In this document: piece after piece, positions 9,851 to 43,980 of the stretch
How the letters are laid out: each line of letters starts with the position of its first letter
How positions within the stretch are numbered: the stretch's first letter is position 1
Sequence record: MW822008.1
Reading direction: 5' to 3' (one strand)
From: Escherichia phage BF17
DNA length: 64,000 nt
The notes under the pieces: generated by a model
Databases searched by the model: none
What the model was told of the DNA's origin: nothing
What the model saw: only the letters and a program-made list of their open reading frames with translations
Made by a program: the position numbers and the translations under genes

Positions 9851-9900
9851 AGTTTACATGAAGGGGAGAAATGATTCTCCCCAATAACAGGAGAAACAAA

Positions 9901-10259: not shown

Positions 10260-10267
10260 ATGAAAAA

Positions 10268-10350: not shown

Positions 10351-10394
10351 TATTATATAAGTATTGAGTACTGAGAACTATTTTTAAAAAGTAC

Positions 10395-10422
10395 TTGCAA
10401 ACTATCTCAATTGGCGTATAAT
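10395..10422 (+). promoter_or_regulatory. sigma70 promoter with 5' stem-loop
   Basis: TTGCAA 10395-10400, TATAAT 10417-10422. Confidence 0.7.
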
Positions 10423-10473
10423 GTTTTACATCGAGAGGGGGAACGGTTTCCCCTGGTAATAAGGAAACGAATC

Positions 10474-10815: not shown

Positions 10816-10828
10816 TATTAAAAAATAG

Positions 10829-10857
10829 TTTGACAATAGATTATAGTACTGTATAAT
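10829..10857 (+). promoter_or_regulatory. sigma70 promoter (TTGACA-17-TATAAT) with 5' stem-loop
   Basis: TTGACA 10829-10834, TATAAT 10852-10857. Confidence 0.7.
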
Positions 10858-10906
10858 AAGTTACATCAAGGGGAGAATAGTTCTCCCCACTAACAGAGAA
10901 AACAAA

Positions 10907-11119
10907 ATGGCTAATATCTGCACTGTACTGAAAAATGCAAAACAAGTTTTATTTTCTGACCACGATTATTTTAATAAAGATATTACAGGCGTTCGGAATA
11001 TCAAAGATGTAAAAAGTGTTATGGGTATCTATTGCAATATGAAACGTGTTGGAACGTTCGGCGACAAAGTACTATACCAGGCAGGGGATTACAATTTTAC
11101 ACTGACTATCATTAACTAA
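10907..11119 (+). CDS. hypothetical protein (70 aa)
   Basis: ORF track; RBS GAGAAAA. Confidence 0.7.
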   Translation: MANICTVLKNAKQVLFSDHDYFNKDITGVRNIKDVKSVMGIYCNMKRVGTFGDKVLYQAGDYNFTLTIIN

Positions 11120-11132
11120 AAATATTATCACA

Positions 11133-11167
11133 GTACTATTGACATAGTTTGATAGTACTGACATAAT
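11133..11167 (+). promoter_or_regulatory. Palindromic promoter cassette (copy 3)
   Basis: TTGACA 11139-11144, CATAAT 11162-11167, flanked by AGTACTAT / ATAGTACT. Confidence 0.7.
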
Positions 11168-11202
11168 AACTTTTATCAACTACACTACTAAGGAATTAAA
11201 AA

Positions 11203-11382
11203 ATGGCTATCATCGCAAAAACTGAAATCGTTGGTCTGGATTCTATCATCATGACGTTTGAAGATCAAAAAGGTATGTATGTAGTTTCATATGGTGATTA
11301 TGTTCGGGAGTATGAAACGGTAGACGAAGCCTTTGAAAGTTATATTCGCCAGGTGAATAAAGCATACGACGACTACCGCTAA
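11203..11382 (+). CDS. hypothetical protein (59 aa); paralog of 8089..8301
   Basis: hand-translated; RBS AAGGAA. Confidence 0.6.
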   Translation: MAIIAKTEIVGLDSIIMTFEDQKGMYVVSYGDYVREYETVDEAFESYIRQVNKAYDDYR

Positions 11383-11403
11383 AATATATTACCAGTACTA
11401 TTA

Positions 11404-11437
11404 AAGTTATTGACATAGTTTGATAGTACTGTATAAT
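11404..11437 (+). promoter_or_regulatory. Palindromic promoter cassette (copy 4)
   Basis: TTGACA 11410-11415, TATAAT 11432-11437. Confidence 0.7.
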
Positions 11438-11481
11438 AAGTTTTATAAACAGTAGTTAACTTAACCTAAGAGAGAAATAAA

Positions 11482-11625
11482 ATGATCGCACTGGATTCAT
11501 TCATCGACGCAGTACTGGCAAAAACTGGCGAGGATCTGACCGCAGAACAATACGCGATGATCGAGCAATGTCAGCAAAACGGTAAATCGGTGAAAGATAC
11601 TGTTAAGATTATCCGCAAGATGTAA
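11482..11625 (+). CDS. small protein (47 aa), below ORF-track cutoff
   Basis: hand-translated MIALDSFIDAVLAKTGEDLTAEQYAMIEQCQQNGKSVKDTVKIIRKM; RBS AGAGAAA. Confidence 0.55.
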   Translation: MIALDSFIDAVLAKTGEDLTAEQYAMIEQCQQNGKSVKDTVKIIRKM

Positions 11626-11631
11626 GATTAT

Positions 11632-11665
11632 AGCCCACTGGTTAACGCTGGTGGGCTTTAATCCT
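11632..11665 (+). terminator. Terminator-like hairpin containing a Chi octamer
   Basis: AGCCCAC...GTGGGCT stem; GCTGGTGG 11647-11654; weak T-run. Confidence 0.45.
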
Positions 11666-11730
11666 TTACCCTATACAATGTCAGTACTAAACCGTTTATC
11701 TCATTAGAATGCGTTACAGGACGTTTGACA

Positions 11731-11928
11731 ATGATTAGCATGAAATCAGTACAAAAACAAATAGAAACATTATCAAAAATTAAACGTAAACAGTACTCGT
11801 TAGAATATACAATCAATGGTAACTATCATCTAATGAAAGAGAATAATTTTATCGTCATTGATGAATCATTGCAAGTTATTAGTATAGTACTGAAAGCATT
11901 AATTAATGATAGAAAAAAATTAAAATAA
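11731..11928 (+). CDS. hypothetical protein (65 aa), AT-rich codon usage
   Basis: ATG 11731 (track start is TTG 11725); weak RBS; no promoter seen. Confidence 0.4.
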   Translation: MISMKSVQKQIETLSKIKRKQYSLEYTINGNYHLMKENNFIVIDESLQVISIVLKALINDRKKLK

Positions 11929-11932
11929 TCTA

Positions 11933-12013
11933 TTGACAATATCCTCCAGTACTGGCATAATACTTACATCAAGACGAGAACGTCACTAACCCATAGGGTG
12001 CACAAATGTAACT
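11933..12013 (+). promoter_or_regulatory. Promoter (TTGACA-17-CATAAT) plus conserved element ACCCATAGGGTGCACAAATGTAAC
   Basis: TTGACA 11933-11938, CATAAT 11956-11961, element 11988-12013. Confidence 0.55.
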
Positions 12014-12020
12014 GTATAAT

Positions 12021-12057
12021 ATTGATCAAAAAATGATCTGATCAATACTTGATCAAT
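12021..12057. promoter_or_regulatory. GATC cluster: 4 GATC sites in 31 bp, three as TGATCAA
   Basis: GATC at 12024, 12035, 12040, 12051 within the leader upstream of the TraR-like gene. Confidence 0.6.
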
Positions 12058-12259
12058 TTGCGTAAAGTAGTATAATTCTATGCAGTTGGTTAGACGAAAG
12101 GTTATGATTAGTAGTGCAAGTGTATAAAAATTTTCATGGTGTATCGTTCCGCACATATGGCAATGAATATGTGGTATCATGTGGATTGGAAAAAGTAAGA
12201 ACAAGTAATATTATTGTCGCATTACAGTACTATAGTATTTTTATAATGAGGTTAAAATA

Positions 12260-12517
12260 ATGGCTGTAGGATTCGCGAAAGATGGGGCCGAACAAGACGA
12301 GATTAACGCAGTGATTCAGGCCGCCGTTAACCACGCTAGAAAGCAAATTAACGCACAAATAGAATCACTGATACATTGCCTCGACTGCGGCGATATAATC
12401 CCTGAGAAACGACGCCAGGCCGTTAAGGGATGTAAGTACTGCATAACTTGCCAGGAGGATCATGATAGTACTTTTAAACGTCCCCCGCGTAATTGTTGGC
12501 ATAGATCTATGAGATAA
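12260..12517 (+). CDS. TraR/DksA-family C4 zinc-finger protein (85 aa)
   Basis: CLDCGDIIPEKRRQAVKGCKYCITCQ = C-x2-C-x13-C-x2-C-x2-C arrangement with IPE..RR typical of TraR; RBS GAGG. Confidence 0.75.
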   Translation: MAVGFAKDGAEQDEINAVIQAAVNHARKQINAQIESLIHCLDCGDIIPEKRRQAVKGCKYCITCQEDHDSTFKRPPRNCWHRSMR

Positions 12518-12523
12518 AAAGTA

Positions 12524-12552
12524 TTGACAGTACTATCCAGTAGTGTTATAGT
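12524..12552 (+). promoter_or_regulatory. sigma70 promoter (TTGACA-17-TATAGT) with 5' stem-loop
   Basis: TTGACA 12524-12529, TATAGT 12547-12552, hairpin AGGGGAAacatcTTCCCCT. Confidence 0.65.
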
Positions 12553-12598
12553 ACTTACATCAAGGGGAAACATCTTCCCCTACTAAGAGGAAATGAAA

Positions 12599-12787
12599 AT
12601 GGAAAACTTATCAAGTATTTTAGTACAAGATGATTTCGGTAATCCTGGAAGTGCTATCATTGTTCGGGGTAATAAAGCAACATTTGTTATTGCTGGTGGA
12701 CCTGTACAGCGTAGCATTAAAAACAATGCCGTTACTATTAATAATGTACGCTATCGCTTAGATAAAGAATTGATTCATAAACTGTAA
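12599..12787 (+). CDS. hypothetical protein (62 aa)
   Basis: ATG 12599 with RBS AGAGG (track start 12593 too close to RBS). Confidence 0.65.
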   Translation: MENLSSILVQDDFGNPGSAIIVRGNKATFVIAGGPVQRSIKNNAVTINNVRYRLDKELIHKL

Positions 12788-12814
12788 TATTAATTTAATA
12801 GAGGATAACAATAA

Positions 12815-13138
12815 ATGTACATTCATACTACTATCACAAAGGAAGTCCGTTGCCAGTTCGAAAGTATTCCGGGCGTATGTTTCATCACTGGTACGTTTTC
12901 CCCTGGTGATCGTGATAATCCAGTACTGTTACAATTACGCCATCCATCATGGGATAAAGCATTTGATCTACCGTTGAATGAATTCGCAACTACTGCTGAA
13001 AAGTACATTAAAAATATTCGCGAGAATGATCGACTATTCATTAATGCTTTCAGTGATTCCGCGTTAAGCGAGATCCACAGCGTATTGGTTGCAATCATGG
13101 AATCAATGGAGAAAACTAAATTCAAACAAGGTGAATAA
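12815..13138 (+). CDS. hypothetical protein (107 aa)
   Basis: ORF track; RBS AGAGGA. Confidence 0.7.
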   Translation: MYIHTTITKEVRCQFESIPGVCFITGTFSPGDRDNPVLLQLRHPSWDKAFDLPLNEFATTAEKYIKNIRENDRLFINAFSDSALSEIHSVLVAIMESMEKTKFKQGE

Positions 13139-13144
13139 AAACTA

Positions 13145-13172
13145 TTGACAAGATAATCTAGTACTGTATAAT
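13145..13172 (+). promoter_or_regulatory. sigma70 promoter (TTGACA-16-TATAAT) with 5' stem-loop
   Basis: TTGACA 13145-13150, TATAAT 13167-13172. Confidence 0.7.
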
Positions 13173-13221
13173 AAGTTACATGAAGGGGAGAAATGATTCT
13201 CCCCACTGAGAGGAAAGAAAA

Positions 13222-13434
13222 ATGCAAGGTCAACTAATCGTTCGTAAATGGTCTGATACTAACGCTAAACCGTGGGATGTACAATACATCGGACCGGATG
13301 GGGTATCACGTTATCAGCCTGGCGTAACGCATAGTACTGAGCAATATGCCGCCGCTCACCGCGAACGCCTGTTAGAATCCATGAAACAGGGATACGGTGA
13401 AAAATTCATTCAAGATCATTGGCTGAAAGATTAA
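13222..13434 (+). CDS. hypothetical protein (70 aa)
   Basis: ORF track; RBS GAGAGGAAA. Confidence 0.75.
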   Translation: MQGQLIVRKWSDTNAKPWDVQYIGPDGVSRYQPGVTHSTEQYAAAHRERLLESMKQGYGEKFIQDHWLKD

Positions 13435-13451
13435 TATAAGGAGTACAGCTT

Positions 13452-13544
13452 ATGCAAATGAATCCGATGATTATTGTGTTAGCTGTACTTATGATCATTC
13501 ATGCAATAGTAAAAGTATTAACGCAATCAGGAGTAATAAAATGA
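13452..13544 (+). CDS. tiny hydrophobic single-TM peptide (30 aa)
   Basis: RBS AAGGAG 13436-13441; MQMNPMIIVLAVLMIIHAIVKVLTQSGVIK. Confidence 0.4.
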   Translation: MQMNPMIIVLAVLMIIHAIVKVLTQSGVIK

Positions 13545-13714
13545 TTCAAGTAGAATTATCAGTACTGAAAGATCTGTTTTATCGGTTAGGTACTACTGGC
13601 GAGTATCCTAAAAGTGATACCGCAAAACTTTTTGTATCACTCGACTTATGGCAACGCGAACAATTAGTAATGTCCTGGCGTAAAGGTAAAGCAGATAGCG
13701 AGGTGAAAGCATGA
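13541..13714 (+). CDS. small protein (57 aa)
   Basis: ATGA overlap with upstream stop; RBS CAGGAG. Confidence 0.45.
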   Translation: MIQVELSVLKDLFYRLGTTGEYPKSDTAKLFVSLDLWQREQLVMSWRKGKADSEVKA

Positions 13715-13860
13715 AAGAATTCTTATTCGAAGTAGTGTTTCAAGGTGTCGGTAGTAACCAACTGATTCGCTCAAGTGGTTATAATGTTAACCAGGCATGG
13801 AATAACATTAAACAAATGTACCCGAACGCTATCACCTATCGCAACCCGAAAGAAGTTTAA
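13711..13860 (+). CDS. small protein (49 aa)
   Basis: ATGA overlap with upstream stop; RBS GAGG. Confidence 0.45.
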   Translation: MKEFLFEVVFQGVGSNQLIRSSGYNVNQAWNNIKQMYPNAITYRNPKEV

Positions 13861-13873
13861 AAATATTTGAAAA

Positions 13874-13952
13874 AGGGATTGACTCCGGTCAGTCCCTTTG
13901 CTATTATATACGCATAGAAACAAATCAGCCCACAGGGTGCATAAATGTATCT
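13874..13952 (+). promoter_or_regulatory. Composite module: bidirectional terminator-like hairpin overlapping promoter plus conserved element AGCCCACAGGGTGCATAAATGTATC
   Basis: hairpin GGGATTGACtccgGTCAGTCCC 13875-13896, TTGACT 13878-13883, element 13927-13952; Chi GCTGGTGG 13960-13967 just downstream. Confidence 0.55.
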
Positions 13953-13998
13953 ATTGTTTGCTGGTGGCTAGTACTGAAAACTATTTTTAAAAAAGTAC

Positions 13999-14026
13999 TT
14001 GCATTGTACTTAGAATCAAGTATAAT
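13999..14026 (+). promoter_or_regulatory. sigma70 promoter P1 (TTGCAT-16-TATAAT)
   Basis: TTGCAT 13999-14004, TATAAT 14021-14026. Confidence 0.65.
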
Positions 14027-14030
14027 GTTT

Positions 14031-14114
14031 TACATCAGGACGGGGAACGAAACAAGTAACCCCGTTAAGTAGTCCAGGAGTAAGACATAAGAAAACCTCC
14101 CCTGATAAAATAGT
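14031..14114 (+). ncRNA. Conserved structured leader / candidate small RNA (copy 2)
   Basis: about 85% identical to 3722-3806; stem CGGGG...CCCCG one base pair shorter on both arms. Confidence 0.4.
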
Positions 14115-14142
14115 TTGACAATAGAAAGTAAACGAGTATAAT
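14115..14142 (+). promoter_or_regulatory. sigma70 promoter P2 (TTGACA-16-TATAAT)
   Basis: TTGACA 14115-14120, TATAAT 14137-14142. Confidence 0.65.
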
Positions 14143-14175
14143 ACTTACATCAACCACTGATAAGGAAACATTAAA

Positions 14176-14451
14176 ATGCGGATTCTACTGACAGCTAACG
14201 AAATCGAACAAGTACTGACTACTAACCTGGAAGACTGGAAACGTGAAGCAGATATCCAGGCGGTTCAACTGCTTAACGATAAGTTAACGCCGGATGACTT
14301 AAGCAAGATTGTAGATCCTCAATTCTACGAAGATATCCACGACACCGCGTTAAGCGTCGAGGATGTACTAGATAAGCACTACATTGATATTGATTTGCAG
14401 GTTTACGGTCGTAAAAACTTTATCACTATTCACGACATTTATAATAATTAA
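14176..14451 (+). CDS. hypothetical acidic protein (91 aa)
   Basis: ORF track; RBS AAGGAAA. Confidence 0.75.
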   Translation: MRILLTANEIEQVLTTNLEDWKREADIQAVQLLNDKLTPDDLSKIVDPQFYEDIHDTALSVEDVLDKHYIDIDLQVYGRKNFITIHDIYNN

Positions 14452-14454
14452 GTA

Positions 14455-14482
14455 TTGACAAAGTATCTTAGTACTGTATAAT
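14455..14482 (+). promoter_or_regulatory. sigma70 promoter with 5' stem-loop
   Basis: TTGACA 14455-14460, TATAAT 14477-14482, hairpin GGGGGAAtggTTCCCCTCC. Confidence 0.7.
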
Positions 14483-14537
14483 AGTTTACATCGAGAGGGG
14501 GAATGGTTCCCCTCCTAACAAAGAGAGAGAAATAAAA

Positions 14538-14720
14538 ATGGCTAAATGCACTATCTGCAAGAAAGAAATAGTATTAGTTCCAAGTGCCCGTGAACGTGCC
14601 GCTCGGTTCGGTGGCAAAGCGTCAGACTATACAAAAATGTTTACTACCCATGCAGCTTGCCAGGTAGCAAAACGTTCACAAGAAAGCGTAGAATTAATGC
14701 GTAAACTTTCCAAAAAATAA
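14538..14720 (+). CDS. small Cys-containing basic protein (60 aa; CTIC...ACQ)
   Basis: ORF track; RBS AGAGAGAGAAA. Confidence 0.7.
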   Translation: MAKCTICKKEIVLVPSARERAARFGGKASDYTKMFTTHAACQVAKRSQESVELMRKLSKK

Positions 14721-14723
14721 GTA

Positions 14724-14751
14724 TTGACAAAGTATCTTAGTACTGTATAAT
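14724..14751 (+). promoter_or_regulatory. sigma70 promoter with 5' stem-loop
   Basis: TTGACA 14724-14729, TATAAT 14746-14751. Confidence 0.7.
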
Positions 14752-14808
14752 AGTTTACATCAAGTGAGGGGAAACGGTTCCCCTCCTAACAAAGAGAGAG
14801 AAATAAAA

Positions 14809-15132
14809 ATGGCTATGATCCTTGCCCAGAAAGTAGAACTGAAAATTGTAACCTCCTTTGACATTAAAGTTAATCGGTGGACTGATTCACACGGCAATAC
14901 TTACCACTCTTGCTACGTGTCCGCGTTAATTGGCGACCGCTGGGAAGACTTGGGACATGAAACCTTTACTTACGGTTACGGTACACAAGGAGAATACACG
15001 GGCTTGGAGATCATTAAAGAAACCGTTATAGGTTTCAACCCGAAAGAAAAAGTTATTCACCGCATCGAAAAAGAGATTAACAAAGAAATAACAGTTCGCT
15101 ACTACGATGTAAAACGTAAGAAAGACATGTAA
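14809..15132 (+). CDS. hypothetical protein (107 aa); paralog of 8391..8714
   Basis: ATG 14809; track start 14764 lies in leader. Confidence 0.75.
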   Translation: MAMILAQKVELKIVTSFDIKVNRWTDSHGNTYHSCYVSALIGDRWEDLGHETFTYGYGTQGEYTGLEIIKETVIGFNPKEKVIHRIEKEINKEITVRYYDVKRKKDM

Positions 15133-15146
15133 TAGAATCCATTTAA

Positions 15147-15183
15147 AGTACTATTTGACATTGCCCAGATAGTACTTTATAAT
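15147..15183 (+). promoter_or_regulatory. Promoter TTGACA-17-TATAAT enclosed by palindrome AAGTACTAT...ATAGTACTT
   Basis: TTGACA 15155-15160, TATAAT 15178-15183; same architecture as 2783-2819. Confidence 0.65.
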
Positions 15184-15227
15184 AGACTCTAACTTGTAGT
15201 ACTAACTCAACTAATAGGATGTATACC

Positions 15228-15623
15228 ATGATTACTAAATTCTACGCTACCCGTGAAGCTGCCCGTATTGTTGCACGCGAGGAAGGAGCAGCATTTAAAG
15301 ACATGGGCAAAGATGCACCGAAAGGTCAACGCTGGGCCGTACAGTTCAAAGAAATCTCTGATATTGTGAATTCACCTGAGCCAGTACTAACAGCAGCAGA
15401 ACTAAAACGAGCGGATTTACTGGCGGCAGTACTTAACGCACAAGATGAATTTATCGCTGATTCTGATATCAAAGTACAGACAAACCATACCGCTTGGACT
15501 CACGCGGATCACCTGGCAAACCTTAAGCGTCCAAGTGAACTGGTTCGCAACCAGAAAGAGATCCGACACGACCGTAAGGGTAATCGTGTAACAGTATACA
15601 GTAAACGCCGCCAGGTTATCTAA
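15228..15623 (+). CDS. hypothetical protein (131 aa); paralog of 2856..3122
   Basis: ATG 15228 with RBS AGGA 15215-15218. Confidence 0.75.
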   Translation: MITKFYATREAARIVAREEGAAFKDMGKDAPKGQRWAVQFKEISDIVNSPEPVLTAAELKRADLLAAVLNAQDEFIADSDIKVQTNHTAWTHADHLANLKRPSELVRNQKEIRHDRKGNRVTVYSKRRQVI

Positions 15624-15643
15624 TAACTTGCAGTACTAACAAC

Positions 15644-15671
15644 ACGGCGGGATCAGTTCCCGCCTTTTTTA
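15644..15671 (+). terminator. Rho-independent terminator
   Basis: hairpin GGCGGGatcagttCCCGCC then TTTTTT. Confidence 0.75.
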
Positions 15672-15685
15672 TAGGATAAACTAAA

Positions 15686-15940
15686 ATGATTAAGGTACAA
15701 CTATCTAAAGATAATATCTTGCGGGTACACTATAAAGCACCACAGAGAATCATCACAAAGGCCGTACAGCTTGCTAATGAGTTTATTAATGGTAACCTAT
15801 TACCAAGGAAGTTAAGCAACGGAAAACTGCGTGTAATCGATGTAGACACTAACAACAGAATAGTAATTGAGAACACAGGAAAGATAAACCTATATGAACA
15901 CCAACAATATAATAAGAAAATAAAACTAATATCACGTTGA
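15686..15940 (+). CDS. hypothetical basic protein (84 aa)
   Basis: ORF track; RBS AGGA. Confidence 0.65.
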   Translation: MIKVQLSKDNILRVHYKAPQRIITKAVQLANEFINGNLLPRKLSNGKLRVIDVDTNNRIVIENTGKINLYEHQQYNKKIKLISR

Positions 15941-15965
15941 CAGTACTCAATTGTTTTAGTATTAT
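15937..15965 (+). promoter_or_regulatory. sigma70 promoter (TTGACA-17-TATTAT); duplicated cassette with 16213-16241
   Basis: TTGACA 15937-15942, TATTAT 15960-15965; leader TACACATACCAACACGGG shared. Confidence 0.6.
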
Positions 15966-15993
15966 GTACACATACCAACACGGGAGAAACAAA

Positions 15994-16212
15994 ATGAAAT
16001 TATCTAAAATCGAAAAGAAAACTATTGATGAAGCAGTTAAGCACGGTTATACCTTTCGTAATGATTCACATTTTACCAATTTTCAACAAGGCCAAAGGAC
16101 TATTAAAAAACTAATTGACAAAGGTTTATTAGTTAAAGTAGATAACGGTAACGGCATTGAGTATCAGCCAACCCAAGACGCATTATCTTTAAAGAAATAT
16201 GCAATTATCTAA
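15994..16212 (+). CDS. hypothetical protein (72 aa)
   Basis: ATG 15994; track start 15937 is the TTG of the -35. Confidence 0.7.
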   Translation: MKLSKIEKKTIDEAVKHGYTFRNDSHFTNFQQGQRTIKKLIDKGLLVKVDNGNGIEYQPTQDALSLKKYAII

Positions 16213-16241
16213 TTGACAGTACTCAAATGTTTTAGTACTAT
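16213..16241 (+). promoter_or_regulatory. sigma70 promoter (TTGACA-17-TACTAT)
   Basis: TTGACA 16213-16218, TACTAT 16236-16241. Confidence 0.6.
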
Positions 16242-16269
16242 ATGTACATACCAACACGGGGAAAACAAA

Positions 16270-16512
16270 ATGATTACTTTAGAAAAACGTATCAAAGAAA
16301 CTACATCGCTGGTGGAACTGTTAACAGTACTGAAATGCCGTACTACTCGGTTTAGTACACCGGACTTTATTAATATGGTTGATGTTAACGGTCGTTATCG
16401 CATTGCAGTAGAACATGGAACAGCGAAAGTATTCAGTACTAAAAACACTAAGGAAGTGATTCACGCGGTTAGTGTGAAAAAAGTGGTTGCCATTGATAGT
16501 AAAGTACTGTAA
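16270..16512 (+). CDS. hypothetical protein (80 aa)
   Basis: ATG 16270, RBS GGGGAAAA. Confidence 0.7.
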   Translation: MITLEKRIKETTSLVELLTVLKCRTTRFSTPDFINMVDVNGRYRIAVEHGTAKVFSTKNTKEVIHAVSVKKVVAIDSKVL

Positions 16513-16543
16513 GATAGTTTCATTAACTCAAGGAGAACATGCA

Positions 16544-17128
16544 ATGCGTAATTATACTAAATTCATCCGTACCCTGTCAGAAATGGAAACCAACAAAGAG
16601 ATCCTTTCAGCTTGTCGGTTAGCTGGTCTGGAGATCATCGGTGCGGGTTCTTCCCGTATTGTATTCGCTTTAAATGATCGGTTAGTGATTAAGGTCGCCA
16701 ATTGTGATGCGGGTGTAGAACAAAATGAAACTGAATGTAAGGTATGGAATTTTTTAGACTATGACCGCCCTCAATTGAAACAGTACTTTGCAAAGGTGCA
16801 TATGCATTTATGCGATCCTGATAATATGTTTATCGTTATGGATCGGTTGAGTACTGCAAGCAAAGGCAGTGTAAAGCACGTTAACGCGTGCAACGAATTA
16901 AAGTACAATATTAAACGTAATGCCATTGAACGCCAGCACCGCTTTGCTGATGCACTACAACACGTCGATGATACATTATCAACACTAACGATAAGAGATA
17001 TCAGAAAACAGAATATCGGCCAGGATCGTAATGGACTTATTAAAGTACTTGATTACGGTTTAACCCGCAATATCTGGAATCAGTACTATAAAAAGCGTGA
17101 TGTGGCAGCAAGTAAAGTAACACGATAA
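16544..17128 (+). CDS. putative small atypical protein kinase (194 aa) with Hanks-like catalytic motifs
   Basis: IIGAGSSRIVF (Gly-rich loop), VIKV (Lys), IRDIRKQNIG (cf. HRDxKxxN), VLDYGL (cf. DFG); ATG 16544 with RBS AAGGAG. Confidence 0.55.
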   Translation: MRNYTKFIRTLSEMETNKEILSACRLAGLEIIGAGSSRIVFALNDRLVIKVANCDAGVEQNETECKVWNFLDYDRPQLKQYFAKVHMHLCDPDNMFIVMDRLSTASKGSVKHVNACNELKYNIKRNAIERQHRFADALQHVDDTLSTLTIRDIRKQNIGQDRNGLIKVLDYGLTRNIWNQYYKKRDVAASKVTR

Positions 17129-17141
17129 AAAAGATTAAAAA

Positions 17142-17225
17142 AGGGATTGATTTCGGTCAGTCCCTTTGCTATTATATATTCATTGAGAGATAGCTCACTG
17201 ACCCACAGGGTGCATAAATGTATCT
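17142..17225 (+). promoter_or_regulatory. Composite module: terminator-like hairpin overlapping promoter plus conserved element ACCCACAGGGTGCATAAATGTATC
   Basis: hairpin GGGATTGAtttcgGTCAGTCCC 17143-17165; element 17201-17225. Confidence 0.55.
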
Positions 17226-17268
17226 ATTATATAAGTATTCAGTACTGAAAACTATTTTTAAAAAGTAC

Positions 17269-17296
17269 TTGCATTGTACTTAGAATCAAGTATAAT
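17269..17296 (+). promoter_or_regulatory. sigma70 promoter with 5' stem-loop
   Basis: TTGCAT 17269-17274, TATAAT 17291-17296. Confidence 0.7.
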
Positions 17297-17351
17297 GTTT
17301 TATATCGAGAGGGGGGGAACGGTTCTCCCTCAAAGAATAAGGAATAAAATC

Positions 17352-17573
17352 ATGACTACAATGACTTGCATTTACGCTTCCAATCTTCTGAATGATGCGG
17401 CCTTTAATGTTGATTCAGAATATCAATGTTATCGGGATGAAAATAAAAAAGTTTTTGTAGTTGATAATAATGGTTTCCATATTGAAATACAATCCGGCTT
17501 CACTGGTGTTGATGGTAAATCAGTATGGGGCGTACAGGATGATAACGGTACATATCATTTTAAACGTAATTAA
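17352..17573 (+). CDS. hypothetical protein (73 aa)
   Basis: ATG 17352, RBS AAGGAA. Confidence 0.75.
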   Translation: MTTMTCIYASNLLNDAAFNVDSEYQCYRDENKKVFVVDNNGFHIEIQSGFTGVDGKSVWGVQDDNGTYHFKRN

Positions 17574-17576
17574 GTA

Positions 17577-17604
17577 TTGACAAAGTATCTTAGTACTGTA
17601 TAAT
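17577..17604 (+). promoter_or_regulatory. sigma70 promoter with 5' stem-loop
   Basis: TTGACA 17577-17582, TATAAT 17599-17604. Confidence 0.7.
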
Positions 17605-17657
17605 AGTTTACATCAAGGGGAGAATAGTTCTCCCCGATACTAAAAGGAAACAAAATT

Positions 17658-17930
17658 ATGTCCAGCTACTCCGCTACTATGATCATTAAAGATATGAACG
17701 GTAATCCTACTTCCGCTGGTGGATCATTTGGAAACATTAATTTAGATGGTCGGTTATCCATGCAATCAGCCATCGATGCAGCGAAAGAAGTTTTTAAGAA
17801 TGAATGCACTGTAAGCAAGCTGGATTATATGGGATTCGCTATCGAGAAAACTAATCGTTTTGTGAACTACAAAAATCCACTGATGATTGATACTAACCTG
17901 AAAGCTAACGAAGTGGAATACTTATTATGA
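17658..17930 (+). CDS. hypothetical protein (90 aa)
   Basis: ORF track; RBS AAGGAAA. Confidence 0.75.
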   Translation: MSSYSATMIIKDMNGNPTSAGGSFGNINLDGRLSMQSAIDAAKEVFKNECTVSKLDYMGFAIEKTNRFVNYKNPLMIDTNLKANEVEYLL

Positions 17931-18118
17931 CAGTTGAAGAAGTTAAAAAAGTACTGGCAGTACTACGCTATCATAATCATTGCAAGGTGAAGAATGATCC
18001 TGATTATGTTGATTCATCCCTGGAGGAAGACACATTAAACGCAATAAGCCATATGCAAACATTAGCAAAGCGTATGACCGAAAAGAATAGACCGGACTAT
18101 ATCGGAAATAAAATTTAA
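17927..18118 (+). CDS. hypothetical protein (63 aa)
   Basis: ATGA start/stop overlap with 17658 gene. Confidence 0.6.
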   Translation: MTVEEVKKVLAVLRYHNHCKVKNDPDYVDSSLEEDTLNAISHMQTLAKRMTEKNRPDYIGNKI

Positions 18119-18125
18119 AAAGTAC

Positions 18126-18153
18126 TTGCATTGTAGTTAGATTAACGTATAAT
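18126..18153 (+). promoter_or_regulatory. sigma70 promoter with 5' stem-loop
   Basis: TTGCAT 18126-18131, TATAAT 18148-18153, hairpin GCGGGGGAAtagtTCTCCCGCC. Confidence 0.7.
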
Positions 18154-18204
18154 GTTTTACATAGAGCGGGGGAATAGTTCTCCCGCCAGTCCAGGAGATA
18201 CACC

Positions 18205-18468
18205 ATGAACACTATCGAAATCACTATCAATGCACACGTATACGACAACGTAGTACTGCAAACTACTATGACCGCTAACGATACCAGTACTTTGCGGAAT
18301 ACTGTTATTAGTGCCGTATGTGCCGCTATCGGTGATGTCGCCCTGGAAAATGCAAAACACGTAAACGATGGTTTCACTATGTGCAAACGTGATAACGCAA
18401 AACATATCATCGTGGAAGGTTACGGCGGTGTAGAATTTAATGTTTATATGAAAAAAGTACTTGCATAA
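18205..18468 (+). CDS. hypothetical protein (87 aa)
   Basis: ORF track; RBS CAGGAG; 3' end overlaps next promoter -35. Confidence 0.7.
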   Translation: MNTIEITINAHVYDNVVLQTTMTANDTSTLRNTVISAVCAAIGDVALENAKHVNDGFTMCKRDNAKHIIVEGYGGVEFNVYMKKVLA

Positions 18469-18488
18469 TAACTAAAACAAAGTATAAT
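18461..18488 (+). promoter_or_regulatory. sigma70 promoter with 5' stem-loop
   Basis: TTGCAT 18461-18466, TATAAT 18483-18488. Confidence 0.7.
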
Positions 18489-18535
18489 GTTTTGCATAGG
18501 GGGAGATGTCCTCCCCCACTAAAAGGAGTAATAAA

Positions 18536-18760
18536 ATGGCTAACTTTGATGAACTGATGCGGGAAGTAGCTAACCTGGCAGAAGAGAAAAAATCATTCGA
18601 TTCTATCTATAACACCTCTTACCGTGATTCAGTACTGGCATGTAACCAGGATCAAAAAGATGAACTAATCGCCACCTATCATGAAGCATGGAAGTACTAC
18701 CGACAATGGGAGAAAGAAGAAAGAGAGTCTACCATTGACGGCCTCAATAATCTAATCTAA
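18536..18760 (+). CDS. hypothetical protein (75 aa)
   Basis: ATG 18536, RBS AAAGGAG. Confidence 0.75.
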   Translation: MANFDELMREVANLAEEKKSFDSIYNTSYRDSVLACNQDQKDELIATYHEAWKYYRQWEKEERESTIDGLNNLI

Positions 18761-18773
18761 AAGTTTTATTTCA

Positions 18774-18808
18774 GTACTATTGACATAGCTTGATAGTACT
18801 GATGTAAT
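18774..18808 (+). promoter_or_regulatory. Palindromic promoter cassette (copy 5, diverged -10)
   Basis: AGTACTAT-TGACATAGCTTG-ATAGTACT; TTGACA 18780-18785. Confidence 0.6.
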
Positions 18809-18836
18809 AACTTTACTAACTACAAGGGGAAACATC

Positions 18837-19094
18837 ATGGAACAATTCACACAATATCGGGTAAATCCTCAAGCTATGGCCTACGTAGAAGACCATAAAA
18901 CGTTACCAGTACTGCAACCAGTTAAAGGCCATATCTATCGTGCAATGTCGTGGAGTACGGCCCAGGATGGCTATAAAACCGTAGCCGTTGGTATGTACTG
19001 CGGTAATGGTGAATGGTTTGATCCAAATAATCCGGTAGCCATTGACAGTACTGAAAAAATGAAATGGGCCGACTACATCGAAGATATTTCATAA
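18837..19094 (+). CDS. hypothetical protein (85 aa)
   Basis: ORF track; RBS AAGGGGAAA. Confidence 0.7.
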   Translation: MEQFTQYRVNPQAMAYVEDHKTLPVLQPVKGHIYRAMSWSTAQDGYKTVAVGMYCGNGEWFDPNNPVAIDSTEKMKWADYIEDIS

Positions 19095-19107
19095 AAAGAA
19101 TAAAAAA

Positions 19108-19187
19108 AAGGAGTTGACTTCGGTCCGCTCCTTTAGTACTATATACGCATAGAAACAAATCAGCCCACAGGGTGCATAAGTGTATCC
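19108..19187 (+). promoter_or_regulatory. Composite module: terminator-like hairpin overlapping promoter plus conserved element AGCCCACAGGGTGCATAAGTGTATC
   Basis: hairpin about 19109-19133; element 19162-19187; Chi GCTGGTGG 19222-19229 downstream. Confidence 0.55.
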
Positions 19188-19254
19188 AAAATATATAGTT
19201 AATAACGGTGAGTAACTATCTGCTGGTGGAACTAAAACTATTAATAAAAAAGTA

Positions 19255-19283
19255 TTGACAAAGTATATCAGTACTGCAATAAT
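19255..19283 (+). promoter_or_regulatory. sigma70-like promoter (TTGACA-17-AATAAT)
   Basis: TTGACA 19255-19260; GC-rich leader hairpin. Confidence 0.55.
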
Positions 19284-19336
19284 GTATCTCGTAGGGCGGC
19301 AATGGTGCGACGGCCCACAAAGTTAGGAGATTCAAA

Positions 19337-19669
19337 ATGAGTACTTCAATCGCTATCGTTAAAGCTTTCATCCGTACCAATGTTTCATCTGTATTCATCG
19401 ACGGTCTGGATCGGGAAGTAGAATACTCAATCATTATCGCACAGACTGCAAACGGTGCTCGGTATATCCTTAATGATAGTGAAGCAAATCACTACTACTT
19501 CACTAAAGCTACTGGCTTTAAACGCATCGATGCTGATGTAGTATACGCTAAGATGAATAAGCTGGTAGACAAGATTAACGCTAAAGGTACTATAGATTTA
19601 CAGTACTGGACCGAAACCGATCCAGAATATGGATCTCACCGCTACCTGAATCCAGGTATTAAAATGTAA
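19337..19669 (+). CDS. hypothetical protein (110 aa)
   Basis: ORF track; RBS AGGAG. Confidence 0.75.
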   Translation: MSTSIAIVKAFIRTNVSSVFIDGLDREVEYSIIIAQTANGARYILNDSEANHYYFTKATGFKRIDADVVYAKMNKLVDKINAKGTIDLQYWTETDPEYGSHRYLNPGIKM

Positions 19670-19676
19670 AAAGTAC

Positions 19677-19704
19677 TTGCATAGTACTTAGAATCAAGTA
19701 TAAT
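19677..19704 (+). promoter_or_regulatory. sigma70 promoter with 5' stem-loop
   Basis: TTGCAT 19677-19682, TATAAT 19699-19704, hairpin GGGGGAAatggTTCTCCCTCC. Confidence 0.7.
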
Positions 19705-19758
19705 GTTTTACATAGAGAGGGGGAAATGGTTCTCCCTCCTAAATTAAGGAGTTTTATC

Positions 19759-20160
19759 ATGACCTTCTCAATCAATTCCTTCGCTGACGTTTTAGTACTG
19801 GCTCGGACTTTCGGTAAAGATGCACTGGAGTACGCTGTAAGTAATGGCACTATCCAACCGGAACAGTGCCGCATCATTGGAAACTGCAAACGTTGGGCGG
19901 TATCCAATACTATTGCACTGGAAAACTTCCACGATGGCAACAATGAATATTCTGTTGATGTAGTATTCGAAGCCGTTGATCTCGGCGGTATCTATAATAC
20001 TAACCTGAATGATGTGCGTATCGTTCGCACGGGGTTCGGTGCTTATGATGTATCTATCCGTGAAGCTATGGACAACGGATACATTAGCAAGGACTTACTT
20101 GCTCACATCATGCAGCTGTGTACGGAACGTAACGAAGCACGCACTATCTTAGGACTGTAA
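19759..20160 (+). CDS. hypothetical protein (133 aa)
   Basis: ATG 19759, RBS AAGGAG. Confidence 0.75.
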   Translation: MTFSINSFADVLVLARTFGKDALEYAVSNGTIQPEQCRIIGNCKRWAVSNTIALENFHDGNNEYSVDVVFEAVDLGGIYNTNLNDVRIVRTGFGAYDVSIREAMDNGYISKDLLAHIMQLCTERNEARTILGL

Positions 20161-23753: not shown

Positions 23754-23980
23754 AAATGATTAATTTAACTTACCATGAATATCAAAAACGTTTAAATGCA
23801 TCCAGAGATATAAGGATTCAAATATTCAATAACAAAAGATTGAAGCCTGATATCAGGAAAATCAAAATCATAGAAGCCGTGTTGTGCAACTTCCTAGGGA
23901 CTAACTATCAGGAAGGTAAGGTAGAAAACTATCTTATAGAACTCATGAATAGTATTGAAAATAAATGTAAGGGTAATTAA
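23750..23980 (+). CDS. family A paralog (FLGTNYQE)
   Basis: ATGA overlap. Confidence 0.65.
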   Translation: MKMINLTYHEYQKRLNASRDIRIQIFNNKRLKPDIRKIKIIEAVLCNFLGTNYQEGKVENYLIELMNSIENKCKGN

Positions 23981-23981
23981 C

Positions 23982-24221
23982 ATGAAAATGATTAAATTAT
24001 CTCAAGCAAAATATAAAGAACGCCTGGTAAAAATTGCACCTGGACTTAATGAAATCCATCACGGAGAAGTCATTAAACACGGAAATAAGATGATTATGAA
24101 ACTTGAGTTAAAGGTGGGTGCATTCATAGGAACAAACTATCAGGAGTATTATGTAGATGAATACATAATCGCACTTAAGAGATACATTGGAAGAAAACTA
24201 TATCTACAAACTAAAGAATAG
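23982..24221 (+). CDS. family A paralog (FIGTNYQE)
   Basis: internal ATG of ORF 23955; junction AAATGTAAGGGTAATTAACATG repeated at next gene. Confidence 0.6.
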   Translation: MKMIKLSQAKYKERLVKIAPGLNEIHHGEVIKHGNKMIMKLELKVGAFIGTNYQEYYVDEYIIALKRYIGRKLYLQTKE

Positions 24222-24250
24222 TATTGAAAATAAATGTAAGGGTAATTAAC

Positions 24251-24514
24251 ATGCAAATGATCAATTTAAGTAAAGATGAATATACCGAGCGTATGACAAA
24301 AATTACGCACAAACGTAATACAATCTATCACAACCCAGAAATTCAACACAGTAAGAAAATGATTATGATGCGTGAGTTAAAGATGGGTGTATTCTTAGGA
24401 ACAAACTATCAAGATACAGAAGTAAATCGCTTAATCGCGGAGTTGCTACTGGAAATCAGAGGTAAGCTGTACTTTCATCAAATGACCCAACCACTGAGGT
24501 GTACTAAGAAATGA
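24251..24514 (+). CDS. family A paralog (FLGTNYQD)
   Basis: internal ATG of ORF 24224; duplicated junction. Confidence 0.6.
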   Translation: MQMINLSKDEYTERMTKITHKRNTIYHNPEIQHSKKMIMMRELKMGVFLGTNYQDTEVNRLIAELLLEIRGKLYFHQMTQPLRCTKK

Positions 24515-24726
24515 TCAACATCACATTGCAAGAAAGATTCATCCGAATCAACTATGCAATTACCAAATTAGATGCTACTATAGGATTCCAAAGTCTACCA
24601 TACAAAACCAGATTGTTATTAGAGTGTGAAGCTAAGTTGGGTGTACTATTAGGGACGCAACACCAACAACGATATGTGGAAATCTGGATTGATCTTTTAA
24701 CCCAGGATGTACATGAGAGAATGTAA
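24511..24726 (+). CDS. family A paralog (LLGTQHQQ)
   Basis: ATGA overlap. Confidence 0.65.
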   Translation: MINITLQERFIRINYAITKLDATIGFQSLPYKTRLLLECEAKLGVLLGTQHQQRYVEIWIDLLTQDVHERM

Positions 24727-36400: not shown

Positions 36401-36556
36401 TTCCGCTGAAAAACATGCTAAGGTATATGTTTAATATAAAGTTTTATATTGTGTTTTTTCAGAGTACAGTTCATGTTTCTTGAAACAAAAAATACCCCGC
36501 CGCCGAACGTTCTCCTTATATTGGAGTTTACCTTATTAATTATAGTAGAGATTAAG

Positions 36557-36934
36557 ATGGAAATAAAATATAATGAATTTTGTGCAAGGACATGGATGTA
36601 CACTGGTGAGTTAGTTACGCACTCTAACTTATACAAGGGTGATTTAAACTACGCTAGGGACAAGATTTTAAAGTACTGGAATGCTGACTTTTATTTGATG
36701 GATTTTAGTACTGGGTTTAGGGGTAAAGCAACCGAGATGTTGGACTATACAGTACTTGATGATTCTGCACTGTTTCAGGCGGCATTAGTATTTGATAAGA
36801 AGTACATCTGTACATTAGAAGAGATGATTGAATTACAGCGTAGAATTAAATGTATTCACAGGGAATGTATAGATATCTGGTGCAGTACTGGTGAAGATGA
36901 TTTTTGTAATCATTTCAATCTAGGGGAAGTGTGA
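36557..36934 (+). CDS. family B paralog (DSALFQAALVFD)
   Basis: internal ATG 36557 of ORF 36449; start uncertain. Confidence 0.55.
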   Translation: MEIKYNEFCARTWMYTGELVTHSNLYKGDLNYARDKILKYWNADFYLMDFSTGFRGKATEMLDYTVLDDSALFQAALVFDKKYICTLEEMIELQRRIKCIHRECIDIWCSTGEDDFCNHFNLGEV

Positions 36935-36936
36935 TG

Positions 36937-37095
36937 GAATTTGATTTTTTAATATCAGTACATTCTTTTAAGCACAGTTATCAGTACTTTTGTAATTTAA
37001 ACAAAGGTGATTTGATTATGGATACAGATACAGAGGCTGTATACAGTTCTAATATTCTGTACAAATTCAGTACTAATCTGAAGGAGATTTTATGA
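36937..37095 (+). pseudogene. duplicated 5' fragment of gene 37463 (truncated copy, 52 aa ORF)
   Basis: 36937-37030 nearly identical to 37463-37550 (ATGGAATTTGATTTTTTAATATCAGTACAT...). Confidence 0.55.
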
Positions 37096-37463
37096 AAAAA
37101 GAAATTAGAATTCAATTCGGTATGAGGAAAAGAGAGGTCATCTGTACACTGAATCATGCGGTCGTGGAAAGCCTTGGTGGTGCATTACAAAAATTCTCCC
37201 ATTTTGTTCTTGTACTATATGAAAATGGGTCTTTTAAAATCTTCACATATGATGATTCAAAAAATTACCGTAATGATTTTGTAAATCTGACAGTACTGTC
37301 AGAAGAGGAATTCTTTCAGGAAAGTACTGTCTGGAATTTACCAGGAGCACCAATTGAATACGTCCGTGCTACACAGGCAGAAATGATCAAAGTAATGCAG
37401 AACTATCCAGAAGATTATATGACTAAGTTTCCTGAATCTATTTATGTAGAGGTTGAGTACTGA
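37092..37463 (+). CDS. family B paralog (EEEFFQESTVWN)
   Basis: RBS AAGGAG. Confidence 0.65.
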   Translation: MKKEIRIQFGMRKREVICTLNHAVVESLGGALQKFSHFVLVLYENGSFKIFTYDDSKNYRNDFVNLTVLSEEEFFQESTVWNLPGAPIEYVRATQAEMIKVMQNYPEDYMTKFPESIYVEVEY

Positions 37464-37819
37464 TGGAATTTGATTTTTTAATATCAGTACATACTTTCAA
37501 GCACAGTTATCAGTACTTTTGTAATTTAAACAAAGGTGATTTAATGCACAGTGCAAATGAGTATATTCATTACACTCAGGGTAAATTTACATTCATTGAT
37601 TACAGTTCATTACAGTATCCACACCAAGATATGCCGGACTATACATTAATGGATACCGCAGAACTATTCCAAGAATCATTAGTATTTGATAAGAAGTACT
37701 TGTGTACATTTGAAGAAGTTATTGCAATACAAAATGAAATGAAAGAGTATGCTGCTTTGCATAAACCCAATGCAAGTATTAATCAAGAATACAAATTCAA
37801 TTTAGGAATTCAAGAATGA
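37463..37819 (+). CDS. family B paralog (TAELFQESLVFD)
   Basis: ORF track. Confidence 0.65.
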   Translation: MEFDFLISVHTFKHSYQYFCNLNKGDLMHSANEYIHYTQGKFTFIDYSSLQYPHQDMPDYTLMDTAELFQESLVFDKKYLCTFEEVIAIQNEMKEYAALHKPNASINQEYKFNLGIQE

Positions 37820-38175
37820 CATATGATTATTCTATGTACTATTATAAGTTACCTAAAGGATGGGACTTGTGCTGTAATCTTATTAAGGGCGACTCGGAAC
37901 ATGAGTTGAGTTTATATATGCATTACAAAGATTCTTGTTTTAAATTTATTCATGTATCACATGACGACTATGACTATGAATCTGAGAGTCTTATAGATTA
38001 TACAGTACTGGACGATGGTGAACTATTTCAGGCTGCATTAGTGTTTGATAAGAATAAGTACTCCTGTACATTTGAAGAAATGGTTTCTTTGCAAAATGAA
38101 ATGAAGAGATTTGAAAAAGAAAACGTATTTAATCCATCCCCATCAAGAACGAATAATTATTATTTCAATATATGA
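37816..38175 (+). CDS. family B paralog (DGELFQAALVFD)
   Basis: ATGA overlap. Confidence 0.65.
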   Translation: MTYDYSMYYYKLPKGWDLCCNLIKGDSEHELSLYMHYKDSCFKFIHVSHDDYDYESESLIDYTVLDDGELFQAALVFDKNKYSCTFEEMVSLQNEMKRFEKENVFNPSPSRTNNYYFNI

Positions 38176-38184: not shown

Positions 38185-38676
38185 ATGACATTACAGAGTT
38201 CATTGGAAAAAGCAAAGAAGATTCATGAGTACATGAATATGGCAAAAGAAGGTTCAGTTTACGGTGTTTTCAAAGACACAAGTACTCAATATTATGTACC
38301 GGATAACCTCCTTTATAATGACTGCTCAGATACAGAAACGTGCGTACTGGATACAGAAACGTGCATACTAGATACCGACCCTAATGATTATGAATGCTTC
38401 ATTAATATGCATAATGAGTACATGGTCTATATTAATGATACAGATACCATCAACAGTACTGACAGCGATTCCAATGACATTATAATTCCGAGTGAAGTAC
38501 TGGAAGGTCCGTGGGATAGTGAAGAGTATTACTTCCAACAAAGTACTGTATATGATAATGAAGTACTTGATGTTATTATAATTATGTGGTACTTTAAAAG
38601 TATTGGTTCTGGGAACTTCTATTTCGATTACAAATACGTAAAGAAAACTGTAGATAACGGTATTAACAGGGGTTGA
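38185..38676 (+). CDS. family B2 paralog (SEEYYFQQSTVYD); contains 21-bp internal tandem repeat
   Basis: GATACAGAAACGTGC(G/A)TACT(G/A) x2 at about 38322-38363. Confidence 0.65.
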   Translation: MTLQSSLEKAKKIHEYMNMAKEGSVYGVFKDTSTQYYVPDNLLYNDCSDTETCVLDTETCILDTDPNDYECFINMHNEYMVYINDTDTINSTDSDSNDIIIPSEVLEGPWDSEEYYFQQSTVYDNEVLDVIIIMWYFKSIGSGNFYFDYKYVKKTVDNGINRG

Positions 38677-43617: not shown

Positions 43618-43980
43618 ATGAACACATTAAGTATTACATACTATACAACTAAAAAATTAGTTACTTGTTTAATATCATTGAAGACAAATCATGATGATAT
43701 GTTTGATATGGCTGCATATGAATTAGAATTATCAGAAGATGGCTTCAAGAGCTATGAAGTATATAGCTATGTTCGTGAAGATGTAATTGACACTACACTA
43801 ATGCAAGAGGATGAGTTATTCCAAGAAAGTTTAGTATGGGATAATAAGTACGATTGTAACTTTGATTTCTTATGTTTAATCCAGAAAGAAATGAAAAGAA
43901 TCTTTGATAATTATCCAGTGAAGAGATTGAGTACTGGACCGGAGCAGTACAGGAGAATTTTATTCCGTTATGAAGACTGA
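43618..43980 (+). CDS. family B paralog (EDELFQESLVWD)
   Basis: ORF track. Confidence 0.65.
   Translation: MNTLSITYYTTKKLVTCLISLKTNHDDMFDMAAYELELSEDGFKSYEVYSYVREDVIDTTLMQEDELFQESLVWDNKYDCNFDFLCLIQKEMKRIFDNYPVKRLSTGPEQYRRILFRYED

Follow-up and report, generated by a model that had tools for sequence, protein, structure and literature searches.

Illegitimate short-homology joints in mosaic phage genomes often lie at gene boundaries, and microhomology-driven template switching of the FoSTeS/MMBIR type is a model that has been defined in eukaryotic and bacterial chromosomes. In T4-type phages, PeSL modular shuffling, based on promoter plus stem-loop repeats and on mini-circles, has been described (Arbiol et al. 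2010, PMC2839356; PMC4122927). The locus presented here belongs to a RaK2-like jumbo phage and not to a T4-type phage, and PeSL-mediated shuffling is the closest described mechanism for the small gene cassette that it carries. As in the PeSL systems, ORFan genes of small size in plastic regions are present in some and absent from other closely related large lytic phages, and short direct repeats on either side of them would permit excision, formation of a circle and renewed insertion through homologous recombination. However, the repeat at this locus is coding sequence, probably duplicated by the insertion itself, whereas the PeSL repeat is a pre-existing sigma-70-like promoter with a stem-loop terminator.

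The window, by which we mean the whole stretch of 64,000 nt analysed, has a G+C content of 34%. Its 35-40 kb region matched 35 phage records at 83-98% identity, all of them from Escherichia/Salmonella jumbo phages of the genus Asteriusvirus with genome sizes of 310-386 kb, including 121Q, PBECO4, slurp01, G17 and phAPEC6; the window itself belongs to the 121Q/PBECO4 group of E. coli jumbo phages in this genus. The genes concerned are named A, short ORF, B, C and D in the order of their positions (Table 1). A Pfam search of A, the short ORF, B and C returned no significant domain for any of the four, the best match of gene A (RINGv, E=0.064) being below threshold and the other three having none. 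The gene A orthologue of phAPEC6 (L010, 1618-1995) carries the annotation 'amidohydrolase 3', a name that is probably spurious, because Pfam gives gene A of the window no such match.

Table 1. Positions of the genes, repeats and joints in the window; a slash within a sequence marks the point of junction.
Feature	Position	Strand	Description
Gene A	36449..36934	+	upstream neighbour; phrog_15629 family
Repeat copy 1	36932..37016	+	TGA/ATG overlap plus first 80 nt of gene C, duplicated; 82/85 against 37461-37545
Short ORF, putative chimera, 53 aa	36934..37095	+	codons 1-27 as gene C; codons 28-53 as 3' tail of an A4_364-like gene
Left joint	37009..37013	+	microhomology GATTT; gene C ...GGTGATTT/AATG against donor ...CAGGATTT/GATTATGG
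Presumed remnant of the donor's upstream gene	37014..37095	+	last 147 nt of a 192-198-aa gene, shortened by a 63-nt deletion
Gene B, putatively imported, 123 aa	37092..37463	+	phrog_13866
Repeat copy 2	37461..37545	+	true 5' end of gene C; 82/85 against copy 1
Right joint	37461..37467	+	microhomology TGATGGA (stop/start overlap), common to donor B/next gene and recipient A/C
Gene C, 118 aa	37463..37819	+	phrog_15629
Gene D	37816..38175		
Window's own positional counterpart of B	43618..43980	+	28% aa identity to B; synteny with A4
Junction repeat, first copy	23947..23984	+	38 nt, exact; small-gene array
Junction repeat, second copy	24216..24253	+	38 nt, exact; small-gene array

The 85-nt direct repeat and other repeats of the window

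An earlier note on this DNA had described the beginning of the short ORF as nearly identical to the 5' end of the gene starting at 37463 (gene C), and this near-identity indeed takes the form of a direct repeat of 85 nt with 82 matching positions. The copy itself was correctly recognised, but its limits were not, as the proposed end at 37030 lies about 14 nt too far downstream and the start codon is at 36934 rather than 36937. The two copies are spaced 529 nt from start to start, with 444 nt between them, and differ at three positions (36964/37493, 36969/37498 and 37014/37543), while identity outside the repeat is 22% over 80 nt upstream and 29% over 80 nt downstream, which is random for the composition. 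Over all position pairs about 1e-32 chance matches of this kind are expected, and even given the 75-80% identity typical of paralogues the probability of at least 82/85 matches is 1e-7 to 1e-5; a chance origin is therefore excluded with regard to both random sequence and ordinary paralogue identity.

Self-BLAST of the whole window returned 188 off-diagonal matches, mostly paralogue similarity at 70-90% identity. Within the arrays at 21-57 kb, a self-comparison of which had been proposed as a check, off-diagonal identity was present at both copies; the 85-nt repeat was the top off-diagonal match and the sole match of at least 95% identity, other array paralogues being 65-88% alike. Nor is the repeat an assembly artefact, since the repeat and its joints recur in 10 isolate genomes assembled independently of one another, as well as in 2-3 contigs from metagenomes. 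A regulatory or RNA element in the repeat was considered and rejected, with 18 promoter-like matches against 17.7 in shuffled sequence and 2 terminator-like matches against 1.2; the RNA fold z-score of the repeat is -0.45, that is, without a structure signal.

A second repeated junction, reported earlier at about 24 kb, proved to be real as well: the 22-mer AAATGTAAGGGTAATTAACATG occurs exactly twice (23963 and 24232), and the 38-nt exact repeat sits within a 269-nt tandem unit that is elsewhere 69-77% identical. Tandem duplication is a plausible origin for this small-gene array, and the more general claim that the arrays bear scars of rearrangement is borne out. UB and 121Q have a single copy of the 22-mer, and the adjoining 24146-24716 is replaced in them by sequence not aligning at 80% identity or more. 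A simple deletion of the unit was considered for these two phages, but the adjoining stretch is replaced and not cleanly deleted.

Two further features of the window were recorded. The palindrome AGTACT occurs 252 times in positions 1-64000, whereas base composition predicts 21 occurrences and synonymous-codon shuffling gives 131 +/- 6, for example at 36983-36988, 37292-37297 and 37453-37458; by codon phase the counts are 63/38/59, and density is highest in non-coding DNA, where 11.5 kb contain 92 copies. In its extended form, CAGTACT, the motif was found 113 times against 3.3 expected, with a flank preference of C-AGTACT-G, and the AGTACT excess is a DNA-level signal. In addition, positions 1600-19800 hold a separate family of dispersed direct repeats of 40-230 nt at 83-98% identity (14443-14544/14712-14815, 14715-14764/17568-17617, 10253-10480/17127-17358, 3661-3852/13970-14160 and 2129-2209/2446-2525, among others), and these repeats of the first 20 kb may be repeated intergenic regulatory cassettes. 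Our literature search found no paper on these paralogue arrays in Asteriusviruses, nor on their AGTACT excess.

The short ORF, its tail and the native setting of gene B

The short ORF starts at an overlap with the stop codon of gene A (TGATG) and, as had been noticed before, runs up to the start of the next gene, where its stop codon overlaps the ATG of gene B (ATGA). What did not hold is the description of an orphan fragment left by duplication and decay, since, once past the repeat, the ORF runs on in frame as the 3' tail of a different gene. This is most easily seen in 121Q, where the ORF has 74 aa (MEFDFLISVH...NKGDL followed by IMDTDTEVVYSSNVLCKEFQNSKMLELLCIADCNILYKFSTNLKEIL); residues 1-27 correspond to the beginning of gene C, and the final 49 match the C-terminus of A4_364 (...QQDLIMDVDSAATYSSNVLCKEFQNSKILELLYIADCNILYKFCTHLKEIL) over their entire length in an ungapped alignment, with 40/49 identical. 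The version in the window has a 63-nt in-frame deletion between imperfect repeats TAATRTTCTGTRCAA, the deletion point lying near 37053, while 121Q retains the tail at full length. Against the PHROG profiles the ORF matches phrog_15629 with residues 1-39 to profile positions 1-39 only, of 121 (E=1.2e-9), and it is not a full-length member of that family, as the invariant FQ motif is absent. In relatives the ORF is annotated as 'hypothetical protein', for example as M2K_0104 and PSLUR01_00268, and at 74 aa as PBI_121Q_366.

A4_364 of phage A4 codes for 192 aa and immediately precedes the gene-B orthologue there, the two overlapping at ATGA just as the short ORF and gene B do. The native order of a full-length 192-198-aa gene, B and a 112-aa gene was found in five independent sources, namely A4 and the four Logan metagenomic contigs L025, L028, L030 and L031. 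Because the 364-like gene has the family motif FQQxLIxD followed by the tail, the tail is taken to be native to it. The block of tail and B, counted from GATTT to TGATGGA, measures 519 nt in A4, in 121Q and in three of the four native Logan contigs and 522 nt in L031; in the window type it measures 459 nt, which corresponds to the 63-nt tail deletion together with one extra codon in B. Given that the tail aligns to the A4_364 C-terminus and that the block matches A4 and the native-context contigs in length, the short ORF is best read as a chimera of the 5' end of gene C and the 3' end of a 364-like gene, and not as a decayed tandem copy. Likewise, the homology of the tail and its native contiguity with B indicate that the 444 nt between the repeat copies represent an imported block rather than the residue of a tandem duplicate of C.

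The native position of B in A4-like phages is about 6.5 kb downstream of the insertion site, as A4 genes 359-369, on both sides of 364-B, are syntenic with the window at 41.5-45.8 kb, where the window has a positional counterpart of its own (Table 1). Thus, the block at 37 kb would be an ectopic copy of sequence that resides about 6.5 kb downstream in a diverged relative. Gene B is single-copy in every genome and was found in only 11 database phages, that is, in A4 and in ten with B at the A/C site; scans of IMG/VR and JGI metagenomes for B returned only 121Q itself and one distant relative.

These data also bear on the reading in which gene C underwent tandem duplication and its upstream copy was reduced by decay to a 5' stump, with B as a long-established member of the array and the rest of the short ORF as degraded or new sequence. 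Tandem paralogues abound in the arrays and the stump copies the start of C faithfully, as this reading would expect; however, the 29% identity to C past the repeat is random, the sequence after the repeat is homologous to the A4_364 tail and contiguous with B as in A4 and the four Logan contigs, no genome holds an intermediate with a longer C-derived piece, and the native position of B is elsewhere in the array. We therefore regard tandem duplication and decay as very improbable.

Instead, there is a high probability that the short ORF is the left novel joint of an ectopic insertion of the tail and B, as one cassette, into gene C. At the left joint gene C reads ...AAAGGTGATTT/AATGCAC and the donor ...CAACAGGATTT/GATTATGGAT, and the chimera combines them as ...AAAGGTGATTT/GATTATGGAT, with a microhomology of 5 nt that occupies nucleotides 76-80 of gene C. 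The right microhomology has 7 nt; here the donor reads ...GAGTACTGATGGA/TTTAGT, the empty site ...GAAGTGTGATGGA/ATTTGA and the filled site ...GAGTACTGATGGA/ATTTGA. The donor would have been an A4-like Asteriusvirus, itself outside the sampled genomes, and the recipient a 121Q/PBECO4-type genome. During mixed infection, the last 147 nt of the 192-198-aa gene and the complete gene B would have been copied into gene C through two template switches in recombination-dependent replication or, equivalently, through two illegitimate crossovers. Since the right joint, the point of re-entry, lies about 80 nt upstream of the left joint, the point of exit, in the recipient, the first approximately 80 nt of C would be duplicated and C itself left intact. 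One duplicate would then head the chimeric ORF, in which codons 1-27 of C lead without a frameshift into the foreign tail, and the other the intact gene C, so that the 85-nt repeat would be the target duplication of the insertion. Slippage between 15-nt imperfect repeats may later have removed 63 nt from the tail without shifting its frame, giving the form seen in the window.

An observation that speaks against this insertion is that all ectopic copies carry a cluster of eight base changes that no native copy has. These changes lie at the start of the tail (window 37020-37043), are all non-synonymous and fall in four of its first eight codons (V>T, S>T, A>E and T>V); they are common to the window, L002, L004, L006-L011, L029 and L032, absent from all five native copies and without another source in the window or the phage collection. 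Their place next to the left joint may hint at replicative template switching.

In 121Q (L004, 2026-2062) and at the same place in CRJP21 (L008), repeat copy 1 is divergent at codons 11-17, with TVKGAPQYL for SFKHSYQYF. Neither the window nor the phage collection yielded another copy of this patch, and gene C of UE-S1 is partly similar to it; codons 11-17 at the start of gene C look like a hypervariable spot in these sequences.

A mobile element, be it a transposon, a homing endonuclease or a PeSL-type regulatory cassette, might also have brought in B, with the repeat as its target-site duplication or functional end, and direct repeats on both sides of a small accessory gene whose presence varies between close relatives would agree with this. 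Target duplications made by transposases are far shorter than 80-85 nt, and the duplication here, with 80-85 nt, is too long to be one of them. Furthermore, no transposase or homing domain was found, B and the chimera being without a Pfam domain, and the repeat consists of ordinary gene C coding sequence, which makes an origin from such an element extremely unlikely. Transposon-like ends were looked for and rejected, as the insert ends lack terminal inverted repeats.

Distribution, spread and coding capacity of the cassette

The filled state, with two repeat copies and B, was found in ten isolates (121Q, CRJP21, SHEFM2K, G17, ECO103 4-12-1, EC22.5-2, slurp01, phAPEC6, Turkey3 and Sharanji). 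In 22 database phages the site is empty, with one repeat copy and with A and C contiguous, so that the stop codon of gene A overlaps the ATG of gene C directly (E9.1, PBECO4 and others); gene C is intact in every filled and empty genome. All six deep outgroups (ph0011, UE-S1, Ec-M-J, TH47, WPEC3 and EC.P1) are empty. Trees of the left and the right flank, built by simple NJ from 650-1200 nt of sequence that recombines, did not separate filled from empty genomes, and the deep-branching genomes in them are all empty. The joints are identical in all filled genomes, from which it follows that the insertion happened once, and the presence/absence polymorphism seen today would result from the cassette having moved into, and probably been lost from, other genomes by homologous recombination, for which the 85-nt repeats and the flanks would offer the means.

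Turkey3 is the decisive case for lateral movement. Compared with the window, its left flank is 88.7% identical, tail and B 99.8%, repeat copy 2 100% and the right flank 85.8%, while its repeat copy 1 is the local allele of its own clade. A cassette nearly identical to that of the window within flanks of 86-89% identity shows that the cassette also spreads by homologous recombination, and the pattern is what would be expected of a double crossover inside the repeat or of the integration of an excised circle by one crossover. In addition, all four combinations of tail deletion and B haplotype exist, and both B haplotypes were found in native and in ectopic contexts, so that gene conversion or recombination is still going on, both from one filled genome to another and between ectopic and native copies.

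It could be argued that the filled state is ancestral to the 121Q/PBECO4 group and that one old insertion was followed by losses only, with no lateral spread. Deletion between 85-nt direct repeats would be easy in a recombination-proficient phage, and E9.1 (empty) and phAPEC6 (filled) differ by the cassette within flanks that are 99.2-99.6% identical on both sides; moreover, the single copy in E9.1 has one mismatch to copy 1 and three to copy 2 of phAPEC6, which fits a crossover late in the repeat. Against this, the six deep-branching genomes sampled are all empty, so that many independent losses would be needed, losses alone cannot yield a Turkey3 cassette of 99.8-100% identity between flanks of 86-89%, and both B haplotypes also occur in native-context genomes. 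We consider a history of losses only unlikely and retain the single insertion followed by gain and, probably, loss through homologous recombination. For the individual events, the alleles in single-copy genomes do not decide between gain and loss, since both repeat alleles (T..T and A..C) occur at empty sites, and the polarity of each single gain or loss is unproven, as recombination between the repeats can turn filled sites into empty ones.

A more far-reaching possibility, which we regard as doubtful, is that the 529-bp unit of foreign tail, B and 80-nt target copy forms a self-contained, recombination-mobilised cassette that loops out as a circle and, by virtue of its copy of the start of gene C, integrates by single crossover. 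If this were true, the unit could enter any co-infecting Asteriusvirus with gene C and spread through genomes that are more than 10% diverged, as a coding-sequence analogue of the PeSL mini-circles, and the clustered non-synonymous changes would reflect either mutagenic formation of the joint or adaptation of a newborn chimeric protein.

As to its own role, the chimeric ORF is most likely a passenger without function. The alternative is a functional new small gene made by fusion, either as a protein of 53-74 aa or as an ORF that is kept open and couples translation of B to that upstream. The ORF is open in 10/10 filled isolates and in metagenomic contigs, neither the joint nor the 63-nt deletion shifts the frame, the overlaps at its start and stop codons (TGATG and ATGA) persist, all eight changes near the joint are non-synonymous, and the pN/pS of the tail is 0.4-0.7 and thus below 1. 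However, an in-frame joint and an in-frame deletion would coincide by chance in about 1/9 of cases, and a stop-free ORF is to be expected of a young fusion with its tail in the native frame. The tail has a pN of 0.094 between native and chimeric copies against 0.027-0.044 for B, i.e. 2-3.5 times higher, while two native tail copies compared with each other show 0 non-synonymous and 3 synonymous differences. In the predicted fold of C, for which the AF2 model is confident (pLDDT 86.4, pTM 0.83), residues 1-27 make up only the first beta-hairpin. The invariant FQ motif, missing from the chimera, is formed by the F-Q pair, which together with the initiator Met are the sole residues conserved in 26/26 aligned paralogues. 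B has an AAGGAG ribosome-binding site of its own, placed 6 nt upstream of its ATG; the ORF is lacking in 22 relatives, and two metagenomic contigs even have a frameshifted B. A function of the chimera thus seems improbable, and we infer that it is carried along as a passenger.

The frameshift concerns the ENA metagenomic contigs L032 (2501-2794) and L033 (68-361), in which B has a 1-nt deletion in a TTCTTTCAGG run and a truncated product of 97 aa; this could be natural inactivation or an assembly error. The linear record of Sharanji (L012, OR545507) starts and ends within repeat copy 1 and the chimeric ORF, its end at 350079 corresponding to window 36970, and the assembly appears to have been opened at the 85-nt repeat with a short terminal redundancy; the repeat is a point at which assemblies may break.

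Other changes were seen nearby. In UE-S1 (L018, 1503-2231) A and C are joined into a two-domain ORF of 242 aa by a difference of 1 nt just ahead of the start codon of C, a second kind of fusion at the A/C junction. An extra C-like paralogue (MEYDFS..., 113-114 aa) is present in Turkey3 (L007, 3241-3585), ph0011 (L017, 2649-2990) and WPEC3 (L021, 2724-3068), where it occupies the place of the window gene 38185..38676 and constitutes a further replacement polymorphism in the array.

Comparison with known recombination systems

The locus offers all the states of one jumbo-phage gene gain, as the donor context, the empty target, the 74-aa primary product, the 53-aa deletion product and a lateral transfer have all been sampled. 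As such, it suggests how the 30-kb Asteriusvirus arrays, with about 40 uncharacterised paralogues, may be remodelled, namely through joints at microhomologies and subsequent spread by homologous recombination. It also illustrates that short ORFs annotated as 'hypothetical protein' can be by-products of recombination, and caution is advisable in the annotation of M2K_0104, PSLUR01_00268, PBI_121Q_366 and their equivalents, which we read as fusion scars.

With decayed tandem-duplicate pseudogenes the locus shares a 5' gene fragment near its full-length source inside a paralogue array, but here the fragment is fused to a fragment of another gene and parted from its source by an imported gene. With PeSL shuffling it further shares the pattern of Turkey3, where copy 1 is the local and copy 2 the donor allele, as the integration of a circle or an equivalent double crossover would give; the likeness is one of genome sequences, whereas circles, which are part of the PeSL systems, were not observed here.

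The insertion event itself appears to fit short-homology illegitimate recombination or templated insertion. Like other illegitimate joints in phages, those described here have microhomologies of 5-7 nt, one of them lies exactly at a stop/start boundary, and the donor would be a related co-infecting phage; in contrast to typical cases, the other joint is intragenic, with an in-frame chimera and an 80-nt target duplication as its result, and both parental contexts and the empty site have all been sampled. Like FoSTeS/MMBIR events, the insertion would be templated from an ectopic locus with microhomology at both joints, the sequence between exit and re-entry is duplicated, and a cluster of base changes lies beside one joint, although the sequence here fits replication-based and break-join recombination alike. 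Taken together, the event belongs to an ordinary class of phage recombination scar and represents no new biological system, but it is an unusually completely documented member of that class.
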